Source of the DNA: a virus
Lineage: Duplodnaviria; Heunggongvirae; Uroviricota; Caudoviricetes
DNA length: 10,580 bases
Virus record (IMG/VR): IMGVR_UViG_2602041863_000006
Direction: 5' to 3' (one strand)
The translations under genes were made by a program, and so were the position numbers. Positions 1 to 10,580 of the stretch are shown piece by piece. The notes under the pieces are model-generated. The model saw only the letters and a program-made list of their open reading frames with translations, ran no database searches and had not been told where the DNA came from. Every line of letters starts with the position of its first letter. Within the stretch, counting starts at the first letter, position 1.

Positions 1-207
1 AGTTCCATTCCCCACCACCGTGCCACTTGATGCACCATCAAGCCAGTCGAAATTCATACCTCCACTGTTTGGTCTCCTTAATGGAACGGTATGTGTATGT
101 GCGCCAGCACTATTTGCAGTACCAGATACATTGTGGGTATCGCCATCATCGGTATCGGTGATGTCGTCCTCTGCGGGTCCGGGTTCAGTTCTGGCAACCA
201 TACTCAT
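1..207 (-). CDS. Hypothetical protein, N-terminal 69 codons only (gene runs off the left edge); Gly/Ser/Thr-rich with an AGAHTHT motif reminiscent of phage tail-fibre repeats
   Basis: ATG at 207..205 (minus) preceded by GGAG with an 8-nt spacer; the frame stays open to position 1; an in-frame stop lies upstream at 265-267. Translation: MSMVARTEPGPAEDDITDTDDGDTHNVSGTANSAGAHTHTVPLRRPNSGGMNFDWLDGASSGTVVGNGT. It does not resemble a P2 major capsid protein (gpN), which would be expected after O. Confidence 0.4.
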   Translation of the reverse strand, partial: MSMVARTEPGPAEDDITDTDDGDTHNVSGTANSAGAHTHTVPLRRPNSGGMNFDWLDGASSGTVVGNGT

Positions 208-302
208 GGGGTTCACTCCTGAAAAAAATCGGGCGGTGGGTGCGCGGTGTAAACGGTCACGGAGTCAAACCGGAACACCGCGCACGCCGCCCGCTGACGG
301 GG

Positions 303-890
303 TCAGTCGTTAATCCCCATTACGCGGTTAAACCACTGGGTGCCTTCTTCCTGGCGTTGTTCTGCCATTTCGATGATTTCAGACTCGATGGCTTCGGAAA
401 TGAGCGGTGCTTCACCCTGGACACTGTTGAACGTCATCACCGCCTGACGCTGCTGTGCCGTGAATTTCAGGCGCTCAGTGCCCAGGCTTGCCGGGGTGTC
501 GGTCATCGCCAGCCCGACCAGATAGGCGCGCCCGTTAACGGAGAACTGCGGGTGCAGTTCGATACTGGAATAGATTTTCTTGCCGTCCGCGACAAGCTGC
601 TTCATGCGCTCGGTCGGTTCGATTTCTGCATACAGCGCAGTACGTCCGGCCAGCGGACCTTCCGTAATGTCTTCCGTACTCAGTGCGGTGACATCGCCCA
701 TTGCGGAAAATTCGCTTGACGGGCATGGCGAGAGATAGTGCTCAACGTTCACGCGGGCAGCGTAAACATCCGGGTTGAAGTTCTCGGCGGCTTCACGCAG
801 ATGCACCGGACTGATTTCACGGCCATCAACAGTTGATCCGGAGACAGCCACGCGAAACTTTTTGCGGGATGTCTTTTTTTCATTAGCCAT
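303..890 (-). CDS. O: Capsid scaffolding protein, P2 gpO-like, apparently shortened (~195 aa versus ~284 aa in P2)
   Basis: ORF 303..923 (-). The N-terminal two-thirds (KKFRVAVSGSTVDGREIS...VEHY...YLVGLAMTDTPASLGTE) matches my recollection of P2 gpO. Preferred start is the ATG at 890..888, which has a GAGGGG Shine-Dalgarno 8 nt upstream; the ATG at 923 has none. The C-terminal tail is unlike gpO. Confidence 0.7.
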   Translation of the reverse strand: MANEKKTSRKKFRVAVSGSTVDGREISPVHLREAAENFNPDVYAARVNVEHYLSPCPSSEFSAMGDVTALSTEDITEGPLAGRTALYAEIEPTERMKQLVADGKKIYSSIELHPQFSVNGRAYLVGLAMTDTPASLGTERLKFTAQQRQAVMTFNSVQGEAPLISEAIESEIIEMAEQRQEEGTQWFNRVMGIND

Positions 891-923
891 AGTTTTTGCC
901 CCTCTGACTGGTTCTTCAGTCAT

Positions 924-1044
924 GATGGCAAAGCGTAACAGGCTGATACAAAGGGCTTTTGTTGTAAGAAAACGGCCAGAACAGGGGGTTAAGGAGAACG
1001 GTTTCGCGCGCGGGTAATCTTCCTGTAATTACTCAGGGGGAGCA
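924..1044. promoter_or_regulatory. Divergent intergenic region between O(-) and P(+); expected site of divergent late promoters
   Basis: 121 bp non-coding spacer between two divergently oriented start codons. In P2 this interval holds the Ogr-activated late promoters PO and PP. A canonical TGT-N12-ACA dyad was not found at correct spacing (closest is TGT-N15-ACA at 963-983). Confidence 0.4.
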
Positions 1045-2796
1045 ATGATTCAGGACGCTTTTGTGCGCCAGCGTGCGCGGCAACTTTACTGGCAGGGTTA
1101 TCCGCCCGCAGAAATATCACGTCTGATGGGAATAAACCCGAACACGATTTATGCGTGGAAAAAACGCGACCAGTGGGATGAAACGCCACCCGTGCAGCGT
1201 GTCACGCAGTCCATCGATGCGCGCCTCATCCAGCTTACTGAAAAACAGAATAAAACAGGTGGTGACTTTAAGGAAATAGACCTGCTGACCCGGCAGCTTA
1301 AAAAACTGCATGATGGCCAGCCGGATGCGACGGCCACAGGAAAGAAAGGCCGGGCGAAAAAACTTAAAAATCATTTCACGCCGGAGCAGATTGCCGCACT
1401 GCGGGAAAAAATCATCAGCAGGCTGGAGTGGCATCAGCGGGGCTGGTTTGACTCCCTGAGCCTTTGCAGGGAAGCCGGGATACGTAACAGGATGATCCTG
1501 AAATCCCGACAGATTGGGGCGACCTGGTATTTTGCACAGGAAGCACTGCTGATGGCGCTGCGTGACGATGTGGCACAACCTTACCAGCGTAACCAGATTT
1601 TTTTGTCTGCGTCGCGTCGTCAGGCGTTCCAGTTTAAAAGCATTATTCAGAAGGCCGCGGCTGAAGTTGATGTGGAGCTGAAAGGGGGCGATAAAATCAT
1701 CCTCTCCAACGGCGCAGAACTGCATTTTCTCGGTACTTCTGCTGCGACGGCACAGTCCTACACAGGCAATTTTTATTTTGATGAATTTTTCTGGGTCAGT
1801 CGCTTTGCTGAACTGCGCAAGGTGGCTGGCGCTATGGCAACCCTCAGCGGGCTGCGACGCACCTACTTCTCCACGCCATCCACCGAAACGCACGAGGCAT
1901 ACGTCTACTGGAACGGCGACCGCTGGAACGAGAAAAAGGCCGCGCATAAACGCCAGCGTTTTTCTGTGGACTGGAAAACGCTGCATAACGGGCTTATCTG
2001 CCCCGACCGGACGTGGCGGCAAATTGTCACGCTGGAAGATGTGGTTAATCACGGCTGGAAACACACCGATATTGACGAAATTCGTGATGAAAACACCGAA
2101 GACGAGTTCCGCAATCTCTATATGTGTGAGTTTGTCCGCGAAGGGGAATCGGCATTTAACCTGAATATCCTGATTGGCTGCGGTGTTGACGGATACGACG
2201 ACTGGAAAGACTGGAAACCTTTTGCTCCCCGCCCGATGGGGAATCGTCCGGTATGGATTGGGTATGACGCAAACGGCAGCAGTGGAAACGGCGACAGCGG
2301 CGCTGTGTCCGTGGTGGTTCCTCCGGCTGTTCCTGGTGGCCGTTTTCGAACGGTGGAGACGCGACGCGTTCAGGGGCTGGAGTTTGAAGAACAGGCCAGA
2401 GTCATTGAAGAGTTCACGTGTCGCTACAACGTGGAACACATCGGCATTGATGCGACTGGCGGGCACGGGGATGCCGTTTATCAGATAGTGAAACGGTTTT
2501 TCCCTGCTGCTATTCCGTACACCTTCACGCTGTCATCAAAACGGTCGCTGGTACTGAAAATGCTGCAAATAATGCGTGCCGGGCGGTGGGAATACGATCG
2601 CGCCGAACGCGAGCTGGTCGCGGCCTTTAACGCCGTGCGTAAGGTGAAAACACCGGGCGGCTTTATCACTTACGAAACGGACCGCGCGAGGGGGATCAGC
2701 CATGGCGACCTTGCGTGGGCAACCATGCTTGCTGTCATTAATGAACCGATTGGCGGCGAAGGAGAAAACGAGCGTTTCACGGTTATGGAGTTCTGA
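1045..2796 (+). CDS. P: Terminase ATPase (large) subunit, P2 gpP-like
   Basis: 583-aa ORF with a G-rich Shine-Dalgarno (AGGGGGAG, 1035-1042). N-terminal HTH-like segment (YPPAEISRLMGINPNTIYAWKKR) typical of gpP-family terminases. Size matches P2 gpP (~590 aa). The stop overlaps the downstream portal start (ATGA at 2794-2798). Confidence 0.85.
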   Translation: MIQDAFVRQRARQLYWQGYPPAEISRLMGINPNTIYAWKKRDQWDETPPVQRVTQSIDARLIQLTEKQNKTGGDFKEIDLLTRQLKKLHDGQPDATATGKKGRAKKLKNHFTPEQIAALREKIISRLEWHQRGWFDSLSLCREAGIRNRMILKSRQIGATWYFAQEALLMALRDDVAQPYQRNQIFLSASRRQAFQFKSIIQKAAAEVDVELKGGDKIILSNGAELHFLGTSAATAQSYTGNFYFDEFFWVSRFAELRKVAGAMATLSGLRRTYFSTPSTETHEAYVYWNGDRWNEKKAAHKRQRFSVDWKTLHNGLICPDRTWRQIVTLEDVVNHGWKHTDIDEIRDENTEDEFRNLYMCEFVREGESAFNLNILIGCGVDGYDDWKDWKPFAPRPMGNRPVWIGYDANGSSGNGDSGAVSVVVPPAVPGGRFRTVETRRVQGLEFEEQARVIEEFTCRYNVEHIGIDATGGHGDAVYQIVKRFFPAAIPYTFTLSSKRSLVLKMLQIMRAGRWEYDRAERELVAAFNAVRKVKTPGGFITYETDRARGISHGDLAWATMLAVINEPIGGEGENERFTVMEF

Positions 2797-3842
2797 TGAG
2801 CAGAAAAAATAAAAAAGTGCGCATGAGTTCACGCATTGATCTCGCTGATGCGCTCAGGAAAGAATCATCGCTCAGTGCATTCACATTTGATGGTCCTTAT
2901 CGCCTGACCGGGCATGACCTGCTGGACAATATGTACTGTGCTGATAACGGGCGGTGGTATGAAACCCCGGTGGACTGGTACGGTCTGGCAAGAGCTGCCC
3001 GGCAAACGTCCTGGCATCAGTCTGCGCTTTACTTTAAGCGCAATGTATTGCTCGGCTGCTATATTCCGCACCCGCTGCTTTCCCGGCAGGATTTCTCGGC
3101 GCTGGCGCTGGACTGGTTTGTGTTCGGTAACGCATTCCTTGAGCTTCGGAGCAATATGCTCGGCGAACCGCTTAAATTACGGCACGCCCTGGCGAAATAC
3201 ATGCGACGCGGAAGCGATCTTGAATCATGGTGGTATGTGCAGGATGGCAAGGATGCGTTTCAGTTTCGTCCTGGCAAAGTGTGCCACCTGATGAATCCGG
3301 ACATTAACCAGGAAATCTACGGCATGCCGGAATATCTTGGCGCATTACTCTCGGCCAGCCTGTCTCATTCGGCGGACATGTTCAGAAAACTGTACTACGA
3401 CAATGGATCCCACGCCGGGTGCATCATCTACATCGGTGCAGCGCAGGTAAACCGCGAAAGCATGGACTCCCTGAAGGAAACGCTACAGGGTGCGCGTGGT
3501 GGTGGTGCATTTAAAAACGTGCTCATTCACGCGCCCAACGGGGGCAAAGAAGGTGTGCAAATTTTGCCGTTCCAGCAGATCACCGCAAAGGATGAGTTCA
3601 TGAATGTTAAGGCGGCATCCCGTGATGATGTGCTGGCTGCGCACCGCGTTCCGCCGCAACTGATGGGGGCGATGCCGGGCGAAAAAAGTGCGTTTGGTGA
3701 TGTGGAGAAGGCAGCGCGGGTTTACGCAATTAACGAGCTGATGCCCGTAATGGAGGCCATGAAGCATATCAATGACTGGCTTGGCGAAGAGGTGATCCGC
3801 TTTAACCCTTACGCACTGCTGGACACTCAGCCCACATCCTGA
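2796..3842 (+). CDS. Q: Portal protein, P2 gpQ-like
   Basis: 348-aa ORF, translationally coupled to P (ATGA overlap), GGAG at 2787-2790. Size and position downstream of P match P2 gpQ (~344 aa). Confidence 0.85.
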   Translation: MSRKNKKVRMSSRIDLADALRKESSLSAFTFDGPYRLTGHDLLDNMYCADNGRWYETPVDWYGLARAARQTSWHQSALYFKRNVLLGCYIPHPLLSRQDFSALALDWFVFGNAFLELRSNMLGEPLKLRHALAKYMRRGSDLESWWYVQDGKDAFQFRPGKVCHLMNPDINQEIYGMPEYLGALLSASLSHSADMFRKLYYDNGSHAGCIIYIGAAQVNRESMDSLKETLQGARGGGAFKNVLIHAPNGGKEGVQILPFQQITAKDEFMNVKAASRDDVLAAHRVPPQLMGAMPGEKSAFGDVEKAARVYAINELMPVMEAMKHINDWLGEEVIRFNPYALLDTQPTS

Positions 3843-3868
3843 CGCGCTTCGCTTGTCTGCTGCTTCGC

Positions 3869-3893
3869 CGGGGCATAAAAAATTTATGCCCCG
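3869..3893. other. Perfect inverted repeat (11-bp arms, 3-nt loop) 27 bp downstream of the portal stop; possible terminator or protein-binding palindrome
   Basis: CGGGGCATAAA-aaa-TTTATGCCCCG. No U-tract follows on either strand, so it is not a classic intrinsic terminator. Confidence 0.35.
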
Positions 3894-4316
3894 ACTCTCC
3901 AGCTCCTGTATCAATCAGATAATTTCACGACATCTTCCAGCTTATCGCCATCATCGACGATCAGGCTCTTACGCAATCCCACCGCGTTGACTGCATGTTC
4001 TTGCCGCCTCAGTGCGATTTTGACGGCCTTATCTGTCACCCCATCAAATCAAAAGCCCTCACGTCTTTTTCACGCTCAGTGTGAGAAATACAGCCATTCT
4101 GTTGTGTCGCTGCGACATCGTTCAGGGAATGCTATTTACCCCCTGAAACGCGGGCTGTTCCCCCGTCACCTGCGCGCAGAAAAAGTGCGTTTTTTTGTGC
4201 ACGCACGGATCCTTGACGGATCCAGCCGCCACGCGGGCCGGAAGGGCAAAAAGTCGTTCAAAATAATTGTGCAAATTTGTGCACTATCGTGCATGTAAAT
4301 TCATAAAAAAATTACA

Positions 4317-4339
4317 GAAAAAAGGCCGCTTTCGCGGCC
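4317..4339 (-). terminator. Rho-independent terminator for the ATPase-peptidase operon
   Basis: GGCCGC-tttc-GCGGCC hairpin (4324-4339) followed on the minus strand by a run of 7 T (complement of 4317-4323). It lies 8 bp past the peptidase stop (4347-4349). Confidence 0.6.
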
Positions 4340-4346
4340 ATAAAAA

Positions 4347-6551
4347 TTACGTGTCGAGAGAAATTTGTGTGCGCAGTTGAATAGGATTCAGAATTGTATA
4401 TCGCTGGCGAATAACATTATATAAATCAAAGTCTTTTACCCTTACGCTTATTACCATCGCATATTGCATATCAGGGGCTGAAACTCCCTTAACATGGCGC
4501 GAAGAATCTCGGGCATGATACCGTATATCAAAAACTGGATCGCTTAATAATGTATCAGCACTGAACTTTTTGCTTCTGTGCAAACAAGTTTCCCACTTAT
4601 GACCTTCACTCCTACACTCCCTTTCAGTCTTATACTGGCTTTTTTGACCAAAGAAATCATCTGTATCGGTATCGTCAAGGCCGAATCTTGGGCGGAAAGT
4701 TACCTGCATACCGGCCCTTGTATAGTTTACTGAATGTTCAGGATCTACTGGGGTTTGAATGCATAAAGTAGCGGTAAGCTCAAATGCTTCGTCAAAGGGA
4801 ACATCAGGGAATGGGATCGGTGCCCTTAAATATTTATTTTTTGCTAATGAACCATAGTAAATTACTGTAGCAGTATCATTTGGACAATCGATTAAAACGT
4901 TAGGATCCTCACTAAACCGTCCCCAACCGATATGTTCACGCGAATATTTTCTTGATGTTTCAGCATGATGAACAAGCAACGCTTTCAATGCAATGGTGTT
5001 CAATGGAGTTCCTGATAGAGCCGCAACTCCAGCGGCCGTTCTCAATGCTAATGGAGAGGCATAACTGGTTCCTTGAACTCCAACTATAGAACCAAGCAAA
5101 GGGTTGTAAGTGTAAAAAGGCTCGTCGTCGCTTCCACCAAAAATAACACCATCAGGTTTAACGAATCCGGGGCTTCTGCCTGGGCCAATACAGCTATATG
5201 GTGCCCGCCCCCATTTTTCACCGCTACGATCAGCAGCACCAATCGCTAGCGCGTTTACCATATCGGAAGGAGGTTGTATTCTCGCTGCATCACCGTCCTC
5301 ATTGCCATCATTCCCAACAGCAACAGTAAGTAATATCCCATGCTTAGCACAGATTTGGTCTAAAACAGCAGTCCATACATGAACCTCATCATCACCAATT
5401 GGAAGATGAGGACCAATACTTAGATTAGCGAACTTATAGTCACCACTATCAAGAACGGACTGTATTTTCTTAAGGACATCAAATAAATCCCAATTGCCAT
5501 TGTCACCTGATGTCGGTGAAAGAACTCTATAATGATCTACATTCATAAACGGTCTTTTAAAAGAAGGTGCATTTTCCTCGACACGTCCGAATAAGAAAGT
5601 GGATGTTACTTCATTACCGTGCTGCAATAATAATCCGCTTGTTTCTTTGGTGTCTGGATACACGTATTCCGTAACCCAATTACTCAAGTCAGCTGTCCCC
5701 AAGCCACCATCAAAAATGGCAATACGTTCGGATTCAAGAACAGCTTTAGAATTAGGGAGCTCCGGTGTAACTATATTAGATAACTTTCTGACAATGTTCG
5801 GCTGAGTACACCTGAGAGACGGCATCGGCCGCACAACGCGGATTAATGAAAAATCGAGTGTTTTTTTCATATCTTCAGGTCGCGCGTGTGCAACGATGAA
5901 AGTCAGTCCACCAACTTGGATTCTACTTTTGTAATCAACAGAGACACCATATTGTGCCGCATAGCTAATATAGGCTTTAACGATATCATCGTCTTCAACC
6001 CCAGCATGAAGAACCACTTCAAATTTTATCAAATCACTTTTCGCATGCTCAAAATTGCGTGCTCTCTCTTTTCCTTCAAAAAAGCTAACACTTTCAATTT
6101 CGATCAAATCCTTTTGTACGCCCTTCGGAGCTGTAGGGGAATTTAAAATTTCCTTAAATCTTATAACGGCATCATCATCACCGCTAACAAACAGTTGCGC
6201 CGTTACTAAGTCCTTATTCTGATCGCACTGACGTGCCGCTTTCCGTGGGCGAATGATTACCTGACGGCTACCGACATCCCGTAAACCTGTCGCTCTAAGT
6301 AATCCTTCCGGAAAGTAGCTTTTACCCAAAAACGCTGGGTGTAAAGTTAAATTGAATACACTCTCCCCCCTTGGCTTAGCCGCATCATCCAAACTGCGAA
6401 AGCGTGAGAGTAAAGTATCAATCTCTGGGTTTAAATGCTCCCTTACTTCTTCAAGAGTATAGGGATAGCGCTTACCATCCCTTCCTTTAGGCAAAGGTTC
6501 CTTTTTTGTCAGAACATGACCGTTACCTAAAAGTAAGTTCCTTTCCATCAT
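4347..6551 (-). CDS. ietS: Subtilisin-like (S8) serine peptidase, 734 aa, with a ~270-aa N-terminal region and ~200-aa C-terminal region of unknown function; candidate effector of an IetAS-like defence pair
   Basis: Catalytic triad motifs in subtilase order and spacing: Asp in IAIFDGGLG (D281), His in LLQHGNEVTS (H311), oxyanion Asn in AVGNDGN (N414), Ser in GTSYASPLAL (S496, codon complement of 5064-5066). The start ATG overlaps the upstream ATPase stop (ATGATG, 6546-6551) with GGGGG 8 nt upstream. AT-rich codon usage unlike the flanking phage genes. Gene symbol is from recall of the Gao et al. 2020 system and is unverified. Confidence 0.85.
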   Translation of the reverse strand: MMERNLLLGNGHVLTKKEPLPKGRDGKRYPYTLEEVREHLNPEIDTLLSRFRSLDDAAKPRGESVFNLTLHPAFLGKSYFPEGLLRATGLRDVGSRQVIIRPRKAARQCDQNKDLVTAQLFVSGDDDAVIRFKEILNSPTAPKGVQKDLIEIESVSFFEGKERARNFEHAKSDLIKFEVVLHAGVEDDDIVKAYISYAAQYGVSVDYKSRIQVGGLTFIVAHARPEDMKKTLDFSLIRVVRPMPSLRCTQPNIVRKLSNIVTPELPNSKAVLESERIAIFDGGLGTADLSNWVTEYVYPDTKETSGLLLQHGNEVTSTFLFGRVEENAPSFKRPFMNVDHYRVLSPTSGDNGNWDLFDVLKKIQSVLDSGDYKFANLSIGPHLPIGDDEVHVWTAVLDQICAKHGILLTVAVGNDGNEDGDAARIQPPSDMVNALAIGAADRSGEKWGRAPYSCIGPGRSPGFVKPDGVIFGGSDDEPFYTYNPLLGSIVGVQGTSYASPLALRTAAGVAALSGTPLNTIALKALLVHHAETSRKYSREHIGWGRFSEDPNVLIDCPNDTATVIYYGSLAKNKYLRAPIPFPDVPFDEAFELTATLCIQTPVDPEHSVNYTRAGMQVTFRPRFGLDDTDTDDFFGQKSQYKTERECRSEGHKWETCLHRSKKFSADTLLSDPVFDIRYHARDSSRHVKGVSAPDMQYAMVISVRVKDFDLYNVIRQRYTILNPIQLRTQISLDT

Positions 6552-7630
6552 TTAATCCCCCACTTTTGTAATTTATTCGCGATTGTTGGATGTGAAACAC
6601 CAACTAATTCAGCTATCTTCCTATTTGAAAAACCGTCAAAATGATATTTAATTATATTGAGATCATTATCGCTAAATTCATCCAATGAAACCCTCTCCGT
6701 AATTACGGCTTCTATTAATGAGCTTTCAAATGGAATATTTCTAAGTACCTCATTCTTTTTGGAGAAATTCAAAATACGGTTAATGATGGCAAAGGACATG
6801 CCATCTAATAATGGTGCAAGTTTTTTAGATAGTTCAGGTTCAATATTATGATTGACTAAATATCTATCTATCAGTTCTACTGATGGCATATTAAATTTAA
6901 GGATGTGCTCAAATCGACGCCAAACAGCCGGATCTAAGATATCAGGGTGATTAGTCGCAGCAACAAGAAGCGAGGTCGCTGGCCACTCATCTATGGTCTG
7001 TAGGAGTACAGTAACTAAACGTTTTAATTCTCCAACGTCCCTGTCATCATCACGTCTTTTTGCAACAGCATCAAATTCATCAAGCAAAAGGACACATGGT
7101 TTCTCTTTGGCATAATCCATAACGGATTTAATATTATTACCTGTTTTTCCCAAAAGAGAACTCATTACAGATGAGAGATCCAATGTTAAAAGAGGTAAAT
7201 TTAACTTTGCAGCAAGCCAATGTGCGGACATTGTTTTGCCTACGCCTGGCGGGCCAGAAAGTAAAACCGTCTTCACAGGTTCAAGACCAGCTTTGAACAA
7301 AGAAACAGCATTCTCTCTTTCGTTAACAATTGACTCCAGCTTCTTTGAGATATCCGTATTCCATACAGGTTCTTCAACAATTGCGTTGACAGATGTTTCC
7401 TGCAAAAGGTTTCGTCTGGAGTCTCCATCCACAGGCATAGGAGCCTTACTAGATGCCCCACGTAATACTGTTCCCTCAGCAATTAACGAAGCCAGCTTAG
7501 AAGCTAAAGCCTCATCATTTTTACGGATGTTGTTAATCATCTTTCTGCATAGGAGTGTAAATGCATTTGCGTTGCCTTTGATGCCTTGCTCGATGAGTTT
7601 GAAAAGTTCATCCTCCCTCACGTTTACCAT
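6548..7630 (-). CDS. ietA: AAA+ ATPase (classical AAA clade) with C-terminal helix-turn-helix; candidate ATPase partner of an IetAS-like defence pair
   Basis: Walker A GPPGVGKT (complement of 7232-7255), Walker B VLLLDEFD, sensor and Arg-rich segment (ATNHPDILDPAVWRRFE), C-terminal HTH-like NRKIAELVGVSHPTIANKLQK. Preferred start is the ATG at 7630 (MVNVRE...), which has GGGGG upstream; the ORF-track start at 7675 has no Shine-Dalgarno. Gene symbol is from recall and is unverified. Confidence 0.85.
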   Translation of the reverse strand: MVNVREDELFKLIEQGIKGNANAFTLLCRKMINNIRKNDEALASKLASLIAEGTVLRGASSKAPMPVDGDSRRNLLQETSVNAIVEEPVWNTDISKKLESIVNERENAVSLFKAGLEPVKTVLLSGPPGVGKTMSAHWLAAKLNLPLLTLDLSSVMSSLLGKTGNNIKSVMDYAKEKPCVLLLDEFDAVAKRRDDDRDVGELKRLVTVLLQTIDEWPATSLLVAATNHPDILDPAVWRRFEHILKFNMPSVELIDRYLVNHNIEPELSKKLAPLLDGMSFAIINRILNFSKKNEVLRNIPFESSLIEAVITERVSLDEFSDNDLNIIKYHFDGFSNRKIAELVGVSHPTIANKLQKWGIK

Positions 7631-7934
7631 AAAACCCCCAATAAAACATAAGCTTGTGTAAGCTGGTAACTGCATTGATGAAAATCAGTGCCTAATGTTA
7701 CCACTCTTGCTGGCGTTATTCAAAGAGTATCCTCACTTTTTTACTGTATGGATAATCAGCATAAAATCTATCCAGTTGGGTTACTCGAACATATTGTCAA
7801 TACTTGTTTCCAACGATTGATCAGTTCTACAGTTTTATCTCCTTCACTTGTGTTGGCAGCATGCTTATTCCTGAACCAGCTCGATTACTTGGCCATTTGA
7901 GAAAGATGTGTAGATCTTCTGATGGTTTGTATTG

Positions 7935-7965
7935 GAACGGGGTGCATAGTGATTTGCACCCCGTT
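7935..7965. other. GC-rich inverted repeat between parR and the AT-rich island; possible bidirectional terminator or boundary element
   Basis: AACGGGGTGCA-tagtgattt-TGCACCCCGTT, followed on the + strand by TCTTTATGTT. A second short palindrome CAGGGCG-aata-CGCCCTG at 7988-8005 sits just past the parR stop. Confidence 0.35.
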
Positions 7966-8008
7966 CTTTATGTTATGGGATTGGTGGCAGGGCGAATACG
8001 CCCTGATG

Positions 8009-8320
8009 TTATTCAGGAAATAACGCCCGGATATTTCCGGCCATCTGACTGGTTATCTGTGCGGTTGGTACTGGCTGTGACTCGGGGCGTTCTGTCCTGG
8101 TTTGTGTCACTGATAACGTCTCATCGTCAGCCCATGCAGCCAGTCGGTAAGCCTCTGCCGGATTCATTTTCAGAAGTGCCAGCCCGGCCAGAAAAGCCAC
8201 GCGTTGGCCGCTTTTGCGGGCTTCTGGTGTAAGGCTGTCCAGCCATGTGCATGCTTCGCCTTCGTTCTTGACGGCGGCGGGCTTCAGATAGAAACTTATC
8301 CGTCTGGTTGGTGTCGTCAT
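8009..8320 (-). CDS. parR: ParR-like small centromere-binding protein (103 aa)
   Basis: ATG at 8320..8318 preceded by AAGGAG; starts 4 nt after the parM stop, as in plasmid R1 parM-parR. Weak similarity to R1 ParR in the N-terminal part (RRISFYLKP...GLALL). The ORF-track start at 8455 overlaps parM and is rejected. Confidence 0.6.
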   Translation of the reverse strand: MTTPTRRISFYLKPAAVKNEGEACTWLDSLTPEARKSGQRVAFLAGLALLKMNPAEAYRLAAWADDETLSVTQTRTERPESQPVPTAQITSQMAGNIRALFPE

Positions 8321-8324
8321 TGGT

Positions 8325-9284
8325 TTACTCCTTGTCCATTGCGTACAGCCCATTAACCAGAGCAAACTGTGGCACTCCGTCCGCGATGAAAGTCGCATTA
8401 ACTCCGCAGGCTTCGCGGATAGCGGGTGCCACAATCTCCGCCCCTCCACCGACAACCATCACCCGCCCGTAACCCGAAAAAACCGCCAGCGCGCGGATCA
8501 CGCGTTGTTTCAGTGTTTCTTCCTTTTCACGAATAACCGCCATCAGGCTGTTGTAATGCGCGTCATTGTGGATGTGCCGGCGCAGCCAGGCTTCATCATG
8601 GCGATGTTCGATAATGGTATTGGCGATGTGGTGACTGGTACGCATACCGTTAGTGGCCATCACCGACAGTACGGCATCGGCCATCAGGGAAACGCCTACG
8701 TGTGGATCGCAAAACACCTGGCTGATACCTGCCAGTTGTCCCTGAACCTTTGCCACATCCAGCGTGGTTCCTCCTAAATCCACAATCAGCAGGGATTCAA
8801 ACGGACTCATGTCAGCCAGTGCTTTAAAGCCAGCCGGAATGGATTCAGGCATAACCCGCACGTTACGGATAGTGAATGCCTCACCGTTCTGGTACTCCAC
8901 CGGGCGCATAACGTTCGCTTTTTTGCGGTTGATGTTGGCCATGTCCGGCTGTGCGTTTGTGTCGAAATATTCGCTCAGTGGCAGGGTGACAACCACATCC
9001 ACCTCCTGTGGTGTGATGCCTGATTTGACCAGCGCGTGGTGAATGGCGATTACATTCACATCGCTGTACTGGTATTGCGTGTCGGTTGTCTGGACAAAGC
9101 GATCGCTGACCGGATCAAAACCATAGCGCACGCCATCAAGCATGTAGTTCGCAGGCTGCGAGCCGCCGAACGGCGCAGACCATTCCGACTTGAAGCTGTT
9201 CGGGCTGATGGCGTTGCGGCGTTCGCCGTTCTCAGTCCATGCCAGCTTGATGTTGGTGGAGCCGTCGTCGATACAAATTTTCAT
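8325..9284 (-). CDS. parM: ParM/StbA-like actin-type plasmid segregation ATPase (319 aa)
   Basis: N-terminus MKICIDDGSTNIKLAW...ISPNSFKSEW...YQYSDVNVIAIHHAL closely resembles plasmid R1 ParM (from recall). Size matches R1 ParM (~320 aa). AGGAAA Shine-Dalgarno 6 nt upstream of the ATG. Confidence 0.85.
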   Translation of the reverse strand: MKICIDDGSTNIKLAWTENGERRNAISPNSFKSEWSAPFGGSQPANYMLDGVRYGFDPVSDRFVQTTDTQYQYSDVNVIAIHHALVKSGITPQEVDVVVTLPLSEYFDTNAQPDMANINRKKANVMRPVEYQNGEAFTIRNVRVMPESIPAGFKALADMSPFESLLIVDLGGTTLDVAKVQGQLAGISQVFCDPHVGVSLMADAVLSVMATNGMRTSHHIANTIIEHRHDEAWLRRHIHNDAHYNSLMAVIREKEETLKQRVIRALAVFSGYGRVMVVGGGAEIVAPAIREACGVNATFIADGVPQFALVNGLYAMDKE

Positions 9285-9310
9285 GTCGATTTTCCTTATG
9301 TTGATTAATT

Positions 9311-9430
9311 AATCGTTTACGGGATTTTTAAATCCCGTTTTTGCCTGTTTTATGCTTGCTTCATATATCGCGGCGCGTTTTTTGCTCATTTACGGGTTTT
9401 GTGAATCCCGTTTCTGTCTGTTTTTTGTTT
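9311..9430. repeat. parC-like centromere and promoter region: two ~36-bp direct repeats 73 bp apart, each containing an ACGGG...CCCGT inverted repeat
   Basis: Repeat 1 TTTACGGGATTTTTAAATCCCGTTTTTGCCTGTTTT (around 9316-9351); repeat 2 TTTACGGGTTTTGTGAATCCCGTTTCTGTCTGTTTT (around 9388-9424). The perfect palindrome ACGGGATTT-tt-AAATCCCGT at 9319-9338 overlaps a plausible minus-strand promoter for parM (-35 TTTAAA, -10 TAATTA). Repeat 2 lies inside the 3' end of the upstream ORF. Confidence 0.5.
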
Positions 9431-10580
9431 CCACTGGTCAGGCCACCCCGCAGCAGGTCTGCTTTGCGGCGGGCGCGTTCAGTGGTTTCACTGATTCTCT
9501 GTGCGTGCTCTGCGTCGCGGATGGCGCGCAGCATGTCAGAAAGCACTGTAACGGGTGTTTTCATGGTGTTCTGGTCCTGCTGAAGTGTGGATGCCAGGCG
9601 TGCGGCGGCTTCGGGGTCTGATGTCCCGAGCTGTGCCAGATAGCTGGCGACCGGGTTATGGCGGATCTCCGTGCTGCTTACGCCGTGATTACGGCTCAAG
9701 TGCTGCCAGAGCTGCGTGATTCGGCTGTCCGGGCGGGTATCCGGTTTGCGTACAATTTCAAATCCCTGCGGTGCAATGATGCTGCCGTCGACGTACAGAC
9801 TGCCGCCCCGTAACAGGTGCTGCATCTGCTGTTCACCGATATGCAGGCCAAGGGATTCAGCAGACTCCCGCCATTCTTTAGCGAGTAACTCGTGGTTATC
9901 AGGCAAAGGCCGCGGCTGTTTGCGGCTCTGCGTCCAGTTCTGCATTTCATCACTGCTGTTTTTGGCCTGTTTGTCACGCAGCGAACGCATCAGCGCCCGG
10001 CGTTCGTGCCGTTTCAGTGAGCGCATCCATTCGTTCACTTCAACGCCGTCAGGGAGCTGCGGCCACGGTGTTGTCCGTTCTTCCGGCTGTTCTGTCCCGT
10101 TGTTGTCTGTTTCCTGTACACGGGGACAGTTATTGCCACGAGTCCAAGGGGCGGCAGGGCCGCCCTGAAGGTCAAAACCATTTTCGCGGGCGCTGTCTTC
10201 CGCTTCCTGTTTTCGTCTTACCAGCTTCCAGTTATCCGGATTCGTGCACACACGGGAGGATTCCCCGATGAGTGGCGACCAGATCCCGTAAATCTGTACG
10301 CCCTGTTCGCCGTAATCGTTCAGCTCATCTGCGAGGTCGTAGGCGGTGCGAATCAGGTAGTCTTTGCGTGGAACAAGTACGCCGCCCTGTTTCTCTATGT
10401 AGGTGGCAAAACATCCGGCATCAGCGGCAGCAAGAACCGCATCCATTGCGTCATCCTTCAGCCGTTGCGGGCCTTCGGGGTTGCGTGCCATCTGGCTGGC
10501 AAGGCGACGCAGTTCACGCCACACCTGACGGGAGGGGATACCAAAGAACTGGAACTGGCGGACCCGGTGAAGGCGCGCCC
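9361..10580 (-). CDS. Hypothetical protein, C-terminal ~406 codons (the 5' end is beyond the right window edge)
   Basis: The minus-strand frame is open from 10580 to the stop at 9361-9363; the ORF-track start at 10524 is an internal GTG. Contains a hydrophilic low-complexity linker (QEAEDSARENGFDLQGGPAAPWTRGNNCPRVQETDNNGTEQPEERTTPW). No motif I can name; function not assigned. Confidence 0.5.
   Translation of the reverse strand, partial: ARLHRVRQFQFFGIPSRQVWRELRRLASQMARNPEGPQRLKDDAMDAVLAAADAGCFATYIEKQGGVLVPRKDYLIRTAYDLADELNDYGEQGVQIYGIWSPLIGESSRVCTNPDNWKLVRRKQEAEDSARENGFDLQGGPAAPWTRGNNCPRVQETDNNGTEQPEERTTPWPQLPDGVEVNEWMRSLKRHERRALMRSLRDKQAKNSSDEMQNWTQSRKQPRPLPDNHELLAKEWRESAESLGLHIGEQQMQHLLRGGSLYVDGSIIAPQGFEIVRKPDTRPDSRITQLWQHLSRNHGVSSTEIRHNPVASYLAQLGTSDPEAAARLASTLQQDQNTMKTPVTVLSDMLRAIRDAEHAQRISETTERARRKADLLRGGLTSGNKKQTETGFTKPVNEQKTRRDI

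Follow-up and report, generated by a model that had tools for sequence, protein, structure and literature searches.

The AT-rich block in the middle of the analysed window (10,580 nt) is very probably a self-contained ietAS anti-phage/toxin-antitoxin cassette, which sits in the cos-proximal hotspot (gpQ - cos - cargo - parMR - gpA) of a P88-like prophage. The block was found to hold a complete two-gene ietAS system comprising an ATPase and a protease, and it represents an ordinary, already described kind of feature, namely ietAS in a known P2-family hotspot. The window is a decayed P88-like prophage (Xuanwuvirus, P2-family) of E. coli O6:H16 2014EL-1346-6. This prophage is integrated in the chromosome beside pheL/pheA with its integrase present, and it is defective, with gpN and gpM absent and gpO incomplete. 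Moreover, the backbone of the window is syntenic with P88, Shae_phiSM and P2. The features are as follows:

2796-3842, plus strand: portal gene gpQ, the left core gene bounding the hotspot (Pfam Phage_portal, 4.4e-18; 98% identity to the P88 portal gene)
3868-3892, plus strand: hairpin 3' of the portal gene (dG -22.2, z -5.3), the positional equivalent of the P2 terminator tQ
4150-4296, unstranded: conserved cos-proximal block and fixed left hotspot edge, with TGCACAA motifs and a hairpin plus T-run; presumptive cos
4297-7890, minus strand: ietAS cassette, the AT-rich exchanged unit from promoter to terminator, delimited by homology junctions (GC 0.409; in 32 of 5426 complete E. coli genomes at 99.4-100% identity)
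4324-4339, minus strand: ietS intrinsic terminator, GGCCGCGAAAGCGGCC then U6 on the minus strand (6 GC pairs, dG -13.7 kcal/mol)
4347-6551, minus strand: ietS, 734-aa S8 subtilase-type protease (toxin/effector; PADLOC IetS match)
6548-7630, minus strand: ietA, 360-aa classic-clade AAA+ ATPase with a C-terminal HTH (antitoxin/regulator; PADLOC IetA match)
7695-7759, minus strand: putative ietAS promoter (-35 TTGAAT at 7723-7718, 17-nt spacer, extended -10 TGgTAACAT at 7703-7695)
7759-7738, minus strand: conserved block CTGATTATCCATACAGTAAAAA upstream of the putative promoter, a possible operator for the IetA HTH
7891-7913, plus strand: 3'-terminal 7 codons (PFEKDV*) of a DUF4760 gene, left over from earlier cargo
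7934-7967, plus strand: right inverted repeat, the terminator of the truncated DUF4760 gene (13-bp stem, dG -25.4, z -5.8; U-rich tail only on the plus strand)
7988-8005, unstranded: CAGGGCG-N4-CGCCCTG hairpin of the backbone, immediately beyond the parR stop (dG -13), the right hotspot edge in most relatives
8009-8320, minus strand: parR-like partition adaptor, backbone (Pfam Plasmid_stab_B, 3.5e-24; phrog_2515 full length; annotated in P88)
8325-9284, minus strand: parM actin-like segregation ATPase, backbone (Pfam StbA_N, 2e-82, and ParM_N; GC 0.547)
9361-10580, minus strand: 3' part of the replication endonuclease gene gpA, the right core gene bounding the hotspot

The AT-rich block and its two genes

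The original prediction held that the interval 4300-7965 is AT-richer than the sequences on both sides, and this was borne out by GC, GC3, a CAI-like index and the dinucleotide signature. GC content was 0.409 at 4297-7890 versus 0.540 (135-4296) and 0.556 (7959-10580), with z = -13.1, and maximum-likelihood two-breakpoint segmentation placed the compositional shift at 4246 and 7975 (log-likelihood ratio 92). Codon usage also shifted clearly at the island: GC3 was 0.33 in ietS and 0.32 in ietA versus 0.53-0.64 in six backbone genes, and the CAI-like index, for which 11 flanking host genes served as the reference, was 0.555-0.575 in the island, 0.68-0.78 in the backbone genes except the short parR (0.56), and 0.63-0.83 in the host genes. 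Furthermore, the dinucleotide signature distance from island to flank was 118-126 versus 49 from flank to flank.

Both genes matched their PADLOC profiles, IetA at 2.9e-89 (PDLC02196, profile positions 5-370 of 374) and IetS at 5.7e-41 (PDLC02197, positions 24-718 of 749), and each belongs to a dedicated full-length PHROG family. IetA also matched Pfam AAA (1e-30) and, below threshold, HTH_50; its closest solved relatives are p97/Cdc48, and its Walker A (GPPGVGKT, 126-133) and Walker B (VLLLDE, 180-185) motifs are intact. In IetS, the catalytic triad (D281, H311 and S496) and the oxyanion residue N414 were invariant in 65 homologues. The dN/dS of ietAS was 0.05-0.15. Thus, the locus combines what identifies an ietAS defence system: an IetA-type ATPase, an IetS-type protease with an intact triad, and adjacent co-oriented genes. 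A PDB sequence search returned no solved IetA or IetS structure, just generic AAA+ and subtilisin relatives. A contig scan with IetS peptide patterns, which were too strict, gave no confirmed relative; the protein search did find homologues, with the close ones in Enterobacterales and Betaproteobacteria and none in low-GC taxa. The 375-aa IetA of the source annotation, which starts at 7675, is probably 15 codons too long; the start at 7630 is favoured because homologues begin at the equivalent of M16. An annotated 42-aa ORF (3911-4039) and small plus-strand ORFs in the island (e.g. 7688-7900 and 7236-7661) matched no family and were regarded as spurious or left unassigned. In Rfam and tRNA scans, the window gave no match, neither a tRNA-type attachment site nor a known RNA in the island.

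The island is one minus-strand operon with its own terminator, in which ietA lies upstream of ietS and its stop overlaps the ietS start in a 4-bp ATGA. Further copies of ietAS lie in the gpA-portal hotspot of two more P2-like lineages (L095 and L099), in L094 (a lambdoid phage) and in L100 (a Tn7-like element); these copies, and that of L002, have the two genes in the same order. The promoter is proposed because the upstream block is conserved, being kept in L094 and L095 although the coding DNA is just 71-76% identical, and not from the consensus scan, in which matches were no more frequent than in shuffled sequences and the minus strand upstream of ietA had none; the putative promoter falls below the threshold of that scan. 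Judged from sequence conservation, this block may well have promoter function, and the C-terminal HTH of IetA is a plausible autoregulator of the operon.

A standing hotspot with earlier cargo

The cos-proximal region between gpA and gpQ of P2 is a defence hotspot (PMC9122126; bioRxiv 10.64898/2026.02.27.708500). In the window, the cargo sits between gpQ (2796-3842) and gpA (from 9361), the latter being annotated intact (2823 nt) in the source genome and likewise in P88. The P2 annotation places tQ at the position relative to Q that the hairpin beyond gpQ holds here. When related prophages were aligned, exactly this interval was replaced by other cargo: P88 has 706 bp of small ORFs, Shae_phiSM has a 736-bp DUF4760 gene, and 20 unrelated cargo clusters of 534-3712 bp were found in 51 P88-like loci (IMG/VR relatives with flank identities to the window of 92-97% in the left arm and 88-100% in the right arm, parR). 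Alternative occupants of the slot include AbiL-like genes (AbiLi/AbiLii-like), RmrA-like plus PIN, PDC-M04A (DUF3800) and Fic/Doc; DUF4760 and Ead/Ea22, which also occur there, have no function assigned. The backbone hairpin at the right edge was detected by regex in 14 of the 20 clusters, with variable loops.

The block had been interpreted as a recently inserted cargo module. Its nature as cargo and a recent exchange were both upheld, but the cassette was swapped into a standing hotspot and did not enter virgin sequence, because the 7-codon DUF4760 stub and its terminator remain at 7891-7967. The stub aligns, TAG stop included, to the 3' ends of 'memP' in Shae_phiSM and of the cargo ORF in L066, and the latter ORF matches Pfam DUF4760 at 1.7e-35.

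The composition bears on the origin of the cassette as well. Very recent import from a low-GC donor, with the AT-richness an unameliorated trace of transfer and not a standing property of cargo, would fit the GC3 contrast with the backbone (0.33 versus 0.60) and the near identity of the cassette among carriers. However, all 20 unrelated cargo types at the site are AT-rich (GC 0.35-0.48), so that AT-richness alone marks the cargo pool and not recency. In addition, synonymously saturated ietAS copies (dS > 2) are still AT-rich and always below the GC of their carriers (0.40 versus 0.48-0.54 in L094; 0.37 versus 0.45-0.47 in L095), and the close homologues lie outside low-GC taxa. Import from such a donor is therefore considered quite unlikely, and the AT-richness looks like a long-term property of the mobile gene pool.

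Cassette edges and exchange between phages

On the left, similarity to P88 ends at 4300 and to Shae_phiSM at 4293, within a few bases of the edge originally predicted; on the right, similarity resumes at 7959 (P88) and 7891 (Shae_phiSM). The island had also been described as delimited by two GC-rich hairpins, both of which proved to be real, but as terminators and not insertion markers. The left hairpin is internal to the cassette (27 bp from the joint) and travels with ietS; it is kept with a loop change in L094, and another hairpin takes its place in L095 and L099. The right inverted repeat is located 45 bp beyond the true right end of the cassette (7890/7891) and belongs to the older cargo, as it was found only with ietAS and DUF4760 (L066) among the 20 cargo types.

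These hairpins near both ends, together with a right end that recurs within 4 bp in three contexts, are what an autonomous hairpin-ended IS- or transposon-like element that inserted itself might leave. Nevertheless, the island contains no transposase, integrase or recombinase, ietA and ietS being its only convincing genes. No terminal inverted or direct repeats or target-site duplications occur at the joints, and no repeat pairs the ends 4297 and 7890. The hairpins show no sequence relationship to each other: the left one is a strand-specific terminator that is replaced in other copies, and the right one is part of the DUF4760 gene outside the cassette. A self-inserted mobile element is thus hardly credible.

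The cos-proximal block at the left edge is invariant or nearly so across P88, Shae_phiSM and the Novemvirus phiT5282H, the backbone of which is otherwise 71% identical, and L095 and L099 have the same architecture. A cos-like 19-mer, GGTGACGGGGGAACAGCCC, lies within the block (4152-4170, minus strand). The best match to P2 cosL at 4152-4170 was 13/19, which 10% of shuffles reached and which is not significant alone, and blastn of the P2 cos junction against 3800-4420 gave nothing significant. Rousset et al. placed cos between gpQ and the hotspot in P2-like phages (2022, PMC9122126). Position and cross-lineage conservation suggest that the block serves as the packaging (cos) signal, and such a role would account for the sharpness of the left joint.

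Among E. coli carriers, identity is 99.4-99.7% in the cassette and 94-98% in the flanks; with Enterobacter phage phiT5282H, it is 95.7% in the cassette and 71% in the backbone. A recent exchange is supported because the cassette is far less diverged than its flanks and backbone. Among P88-like phages, homologous recombination between conserved flanks is the probable route of swapping; these flanks would be the cos block on the left and the end of parR with its hairpin on the right. The transfer across genera would have relied on the cos block at the left edge and on an illegitimate joint at 7890/7891 at the right edge. The promoter-distal edge 7887-7891 forms the joint within 4 bp in P88-like carriers, Novemvirus phages and the deletion derivative L090, with just 1-2 nt of microhomology. 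That ietAS moves as a discrete promoter-to-terminator cassette through a specific exchange process, with this edge as a preferred recombination point, is nonetheless very doubtful.

Proposed function and relation to known systems

Phage protection, and the toxicity of IetS without IetA, are known from the literature on other alleles and would apply here by analogy. Previous work described ietAS as a protease toxin with an ATPase antitoxin, in which defence needs protease activity and ietA mutants were not obtainable (PMC13069673). A Bacillus ietAS acts by abortive infection with a phage-protein trigger (bioRxiv 10.1101/2022.08.27.505566). In E. coli, it was described as prophage-borne, and the system from ECOR52 gave limited protection alone (bioRxiv 10.1101/2022.08.21.504612). 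By the same reasoning, IetS would be an intracellular subtilase, the predicted fold of which resembles unprocessed pro-subtilisins and is hence zymogen-like, and IetA, as a Cdc48-like AAA+ ATPase, would hold it harmless. A phage protein or process may then lift this control, so that proteolysis by IetS would halt the growth of the infected cell, and such abortive infection would protect the lysogen population and with it the prophage. Because the prophage of 2014EL-1346-6 is defective, this benefit to the phage no longer applies in that strain.

The cassette might instead act mainly in addiction, stabilizing the element by post-segregational killing alongside parMR. The ietAS pair was first described as a plasmid-stabilizing toxin-antitoxin pair of Agrobacterium pTiC58, as cited in PMC13069673; here it lies 334 bp from parR, parMR is a plasmid-type partition system, and the phage protection by E. 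coli ietAS alone is weak (bioRxiv 10.1101/2022.08.21.504612). However, the element is chromosomally integrated, as are 1453 of the 1455 parMR matches, and linkage is not consistent, since ietAS occurs in 32 genomes versus 1307 for this parMR and is found without parMR in phiT5282H, L095, L099 and L094. Moreover, the slot is otherwise occupied by defence-type genes. A mainly addictive role is accordingly unlikely and the anti-phage reading is preferred; the two roles are not mutually exclusive.

The ietAS system was reportedly named as a defence system by Gao et al. in 2020. The present locus shares with it the ATPase gene followed by the S8 serine protease gene, full-length PADLOC matches, and intact catalytic and nucleotide-binding residues. 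It is carried by a phage whereas ietAS of pTiC58 is carried by a plasmid, and no architectural difference between the two was detected in the sequences. The closest described counterpart, gp20-gp21 of phiT5282H (annotated 'AAA family ATPase/FtsH' and 'S8 family peptidase'), is 95.7% identical over window positions 4149-7891 and has the same portal-proximal position and orientation, but this Novemvirus lacks parMR and its cassette abuts gpA directly. The ietHAS system (Liu-DS4, PMC13069673) has the same ietA-ietS core, and protease activity is likewise required; it differs by an extra SNF2-type helicase gene, ietH, which is absent from the window. The slot corresponds to the old/tin locus of P2, the P2-like hotspot of Rousset et al. 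(2022, PMC9122126), both in its location, with the portal gene/cos on one side and the replication gene on the other, and in its many alternative, mostly defence-type cargos. P88-like phages have a conserved parMR between the variable slot and gpA, where P2 has old and tin, and the P2 cos region has no nucleotide similarity to the cos region here by blastn.

In conclusion, the appropriate label for the block is ietAS and not 'FtsH/AAA ATPase + S8 peptidase', and the prophage slot should be read as the P2-family defence hotspot, a result of little importance beyond annotation. The locus does offer a clean worked case of cassette swapping, with base-level joints, a stub of the prior cargo and a cassette much less diverged than its carriers, and such cases could help to work out how hotspot exchange happens. 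In addition, the predicted zymogen-like architecture of IetS may provide a testable starting point for the mechanism of ietAS.

Composition and gene content of the island

The original prediction described, by eye, an AT-rich island at 4300-7965, and the quantitative analysis confirmed it. In 400-nt windows, GC content fell to 0.355-0.48 over ~4200-8000, compared with 0.51-0.59 before and 0.54-0.59 after this region, and the GC of 4297-7890 was 0.409 versus 0.544 in the remainder of the window (z = -13.1). Likelihood segmentation with two breakpoints, run unsupervised, placed the shift at 4246 and 7975. The shift was largest at synonymous positions, where GC3 was 0.33 for one island gene and 0.32 for the other, versus 0.53-0.64 in six backbone genes. 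Moreover, a CAI-like index, for which 11 chromosomal genes flanking the prophage served as the reference set, was 0.555-0.575 for the island genes, 0.68-0.78 for the backbone except the short parR (0.56), and 0.63-0.83 for the host. The dinucleotide-signature distance of the island to either flank was 118-126, which was more than twice the flank-to-flank value of 49. Sliding-window GC and codon adaptation, the two compositional checks named with the prediction, therefore both showed the island. A composition dictated by protein function was rejected, as it was ruled out by the GC3 result and by the replacement of the interval in related phages. The gene order was as follows.

Genes of the island and its flanks, from left to right
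Truncated gpO (scaffold), minus strand, leftmost in the gene order
gpP (terminase) and gpQ (portal), plus strand, after gpO and before a conserved non-coding block, which is followed by the island
6551-4347, minus strand, ietS, encoding 734 aa
7630-6548, minus strand, ietA, encoding 360 aa
parR, parM and the 3' part of the replication gene gpA, all minus strand, right of the island

The two island products matched the PADLOC ietAS profiles nearly end to end (IetA, 2.9e-89; IetS, 5.7e-41), and each matched a dedicated full-length PHROG family. IetA is a classic-clade AAA+ ATPase with Walker A (GPPGVGKT) and Walker B (VLLLDE) motifs and a C-terminal helix-turn-helix, and its closest solved relatives are the p97/Cdc48 D-domains. 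IetS is an S8 subtilase in which Asp281, His311, Ser496 and the oxyanion Asn414 were invariant in 65 homologues (down to 41% identity). The RefSeq form of ietA encodes 375 aa from a start at 7675, which is probably too long because all homologues begin at the equivalent of Met16; the 360-aa form from the ATG at 7630, which is preceded by GGGGG, fits the homologues in five other elements and the PADLOC and PHROG profiles. The stop codon of ietA overlaps the ietS start codon in ATGA, which suggests that the two genes are translationally coupled. Furthermore, dN/dS was 0.05-0.15 for both genes against the copies in other phages, indicating purifying selection.

The backbone is P88-like (genus Xuanwuvirus, family Peduoviridae, P2-like), with 98.3% identity to P88 over 311-4300 and 96.2% over 7959-10580. 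Over 135-10580 the window matches, at 100% identity, the chromosome of E. coli O6:H16 strain 2014EL-1346-6, in which the source prophage is integrated beside pheL/pheA. Relative to P88 and most relatives, a 2174-bp deletion at 311-313 has eliminated terS (gpM) along with the major capsid gene (gpN) and has cut the C-terminus off the scaffold gpO (a RefSeq pseudogene), so the source prophage is defective; these genes are kept by the other cassette carriers. IS100 and additional pseudogenes lie near the deletion, and ietAS, parMR and gpA are still intact. Window 1-134 is 100% identical to a piece of a tail-fibre gene from the same prophage, located 6.26 kb away in the closed source genome (L098, 12603-12736 versus 19001 for window base 135), and also matches tail-fibre genes of P1-like plasmids (98%). 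Among complete E. coli genomes, none has 1-134 running straight into 135, and the window therefore has at 134/135 either a junction from an additional deletion or an artefact of assembly or construction. A 42-aa hypothetical ORF (3911-4039, minus strand), annotated in P88 and the source genome, lies between the portal terminator and the candidate cos block and had no Pfam or PHROG support.

A variable slot and its boundaries

Replacement of the same interval by other cargo, which the cargo-module interpretation had anticipated, was found in relatives. In P88, 706 bp with small hypothetical ORFs replace 4301-7958, and in Shae_phiSM, 736 bp with a DUF4760 gene replace 4294-7890. P88-like loci were drawn from IMG/VR with a ParM query, and in the 51 loci with both flanks locatable, the interval from the cos-side arm to the parR stop fell into 20 sequence clusters of 534-3712 bp, all of them AT-richer than the backbone (GC 0.35-0.48). 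ietAS occupied five of these 51 loci, and the cargo clusters also included the following.

Cargo clusters of the slot
AbiL-like ATPase and TOPRIM pair
RmrA-like HTH-M78 peptidase and PIN pair
DUF3800 protein, PADLOC candidate PDC-M04A
Fic/Doc toxin with antitoxin
DUF4760, two types
Ead/Ea22-like proteins

This slot is the hotspot between gpA and gpQ next to cos that was described by Rousset et al. 2022 (PMC9122126) and analysed further in bioRxiv 10.64898/2026.02.27.708500. On its left, window ~4150-4296, ending ...TTGTGCAAATTTGTGCACTATCGTGCAT, is common to all backbones, and cargo divergence starts at 4297. Even phiT5282H, a Novemvirus of Enterobacter with just 71% identity in its structural genes, shares the block. 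Two more distant P2-like phages, L095 and L099 (Yersinia, 186-like), show the same arrangement at the equivalent position, with TGCACAA motifs, a T-run hairpin and, after these, a G-rich 19-mer similar to the P2 cohesive end. From this conserved cross-lineage architecture, we infer that ~4150-4296 is a packaging signal, the outer edge of which would set the left limit of the hotspot. Between the window 19-mer (minus strand, 4152-4170) and P2 cosL, 13 of 19 positions agree, which is not significant alone, and a blastn comparison of the candidate cos block with P2 found no similarity. Repeated TGCACAA/GTGCA motifs and the T-run hairpin flank the cos-like 19-mer in window 4150-4296, L095 9206-9612 and L099 10203-10615. 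Their positions are kept in all three P2-like lineages even though the DNA around them cannot be aligned, and they are candidate terminase-recognition elements.

The island had been described as bounded by two GC-rich hairpins. Both hairpins are real, but they belong to two different genes, and the right-hand one lies 45 bp outside the ietAS cassette. The left hairpin (4324-4339; six G-C pairs, dG -13.7 kcal/mol) lies 8 nt beyond the ietS stop, U6 comes next on the strand of ietS (minus), and the hairpin is thus the intrinsic terminator of ietS. It moves with ietS, as the copy in the lambdoid phage L094 retains the stem with an altered loop; in L095 and L099, other hairpins take its place. In nearly every cargo type, an unrelated GC hairpin and T-run of its own directly follows the conserved left arm, so that a cos-proximal terminator is a general feature of the slot.

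The right-hand inverted repeat (7934-7967; 13-bp stem, dG -25.4, z -5.8) has a U-rich tail on the plus strand only. Beside it, 7891-7913 aligns with the final 23 nt, including the TAG stop, of the plus-strand DUF4760 gene that is the cargo of Shae_phiSM and of the IMG/VR locus L066, and the repeat is the plus-strand terminator of this gene. Among the 20 cargo types, the repeat was found only with ietAS and the DUF4760 type, which marks it as a leftover from the previous occupant. The right-edge element common to most relatives is a different, smaller hairpin at 7988-8005, CAGGGCG-N4-CGCCCTG, which immediately follows the parR stop. A regex search located it in 14 of 20 cargo clusters with a constant stem and the loops AATA, GATG, AACT and AGTT; no U-tail follows it on the strand of parR, and it therefore does not qualify as a canonical terminator. 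A self-mobile hairpin-ended element was rejected, as the hairpins are unrelated and one is outside the cassette. A recombinase and terminal repeats were looked for in the island, and none were found.

L094 and L095 share with the window a conserved block of ~70 nt that precedes ietA, though the coding DNA is just 71-76% identical. The block contains an invariant AGTGGTAAnAT, which reads as an extended -10 (TGgTAACAT, 7703-7695) with a -35 (TTGAAT, 7723-7718) 17 nt upstream, and an additional conserved element at 7738-7759. This conservation points to a putative promoter of the cassette's own with a possible operator; a generic promoter scan was sub-threshold at this block.

Recency and spread of the cassette

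In the six P88-like IMG/VR carriers with both flanks resolved (L086-L089, L096, L097), the cassette was 99.4-99.7% identical to the window, versus 94.0-97.9% for the left flank and 96.7-97.1% for the right flank, which supports the view of a recently acquired cargo module. All P88-like carriers examined share one 3712-bp arrangement including the DUF4760 stub, which points to one acquisition in the P88-like lineage, followed by spread over diverged backbones, likely by recombination in the conserved flanks. Among 5426 complete E. coli genomes, 32, including EPEC E2348/69, carry the cassette at 99.4-100% identity. phiT5282H and two metagenomic relatives also have the cassette, and its place is once more the interval from the portal gene to gpA; the phiT5282H-type cassette is 95.7% identical to the window across 4149-7891. 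The promoter-distal edge of the cassette is the joint within 4 bp in three contexts (P88-like carriers, Novemvirus phages and L090); this recurrence may be a coincidence or may mark a recombination-prone spot. In the P88-like L090 (IMG/VR UViG_2695420596_000005), ietAS is fused directly to an early-region gene at the equivalent of 7887/7888 with just 2 nt of microhomology, and the DUF4760 stub, parR, parM and gpA are deleted.

Diverged ietAS pairs and their amino acid identity
L095, gpA-portal slot, 78%
Yersinia P2/186-like phage, gpA-portal slot, 81%
Lambda-like phage of Plesiomonas type, lysis/cos-proximal region, 85%
Chromobacterium Tn7-like element, cargo, 56%

The last of these pairs shows that ietAS is also carried by transposons. 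It lies in the cargo of L100 (Chromobacterium vaccinii CP017707.1), a Tn7-like element with TnsA, Mu-type transposase, TniB and TniQ, and adjoins an HTH-M78 peptidase gene and a PaaA2-type antitoxin gene. In L094 and L095, the contexts measured, ietAS was AT-richer than its carrier even with synonymous sites saturated. AT-richness thus looks like a lasting property of the mobile gene pool and not a recency clock, and the argument for recency rests on the identity contrast between cassette and backbone.

Function of ietAS and the adjoining partition genes

In this lineage of integrated prophages, the plasmid-type partition pair parMR (8009-9284) is a conserved part of the backbone. Of 5426 complete E. 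coli genomes, 1307 carried it, with 1453 of its 1455 places on the chromosome. This count agrees with the report that about a quarter of P2-like phages have a putative partition system in the gpA-gpQ hotspot, the pair being mentioned there merely as such (Rousset et al. 2022, PMC9122126). The first description of ietAS was of a toxin-antitoxin pair on a plasmid, in which the protease is the toxin and the ATPase the antitoxin (PMC13069673), and the cassette might accordingly be seen as purely an addiction module linked to parMR. This explanation is weakened by the chromosomal integration of the element, by the difference in occurrence (32 for ietAS versus 1307 for parMR) and by the presence of ietAS without parMR in four other contexts; addiction is a possible second function.

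Phage defence by ietAS needs protease activity, ietA mutants were not constructible, and the anti-phage mechanism was given as unknown (PMC13069673). Moreover, a Bacillus ietAS acts by abortive infection with a phage protein as trigger (bioRxiv 10.1101/2022.08.27.505566), and an E. coli ietAS was located in a prophage and was weak when alone (bioRxiv 10.1101/2022.08.21.504612). In the present study, an AlphaFold2 model of IetS from a 65-sequence alignment (mean pLDDT 84.3, pTM 0.87) was nearest to unprocessed pro-subtilisins and Csp germination proteases (6mw4, 9pr9, 4i0w). On the basis of this model, IetS is predicted to be an intracellular subtilase of zymogen-like build, in which prodomain-like modules precede the catalytic domain and a beta-sandwich forms the C-terminal part. 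An IetA hexamer would hold or remodel IetS and keep it inactive, a phage cue would lift this control, and proteolysis by IetS would then arrest the infected cell.

In conclusion, the GC and GC3 shift, the replacement in relatives and the identity contrast bear out the overall observation of the original prediction and support its interpretation. Both the system in the island and the hotspot that holds it are already known, and the exact island sequence is present in RefSeq genomes, labelled there only 'S8 family peptidase' and 'AAA family ATPase'. The additions made here are modest, comprising a base-level account of the swap, the remnant of an earlier cargo, the reassignment of two hairpins, the conserved putative promoter block and the prediction that IetS may be zymogen-like.
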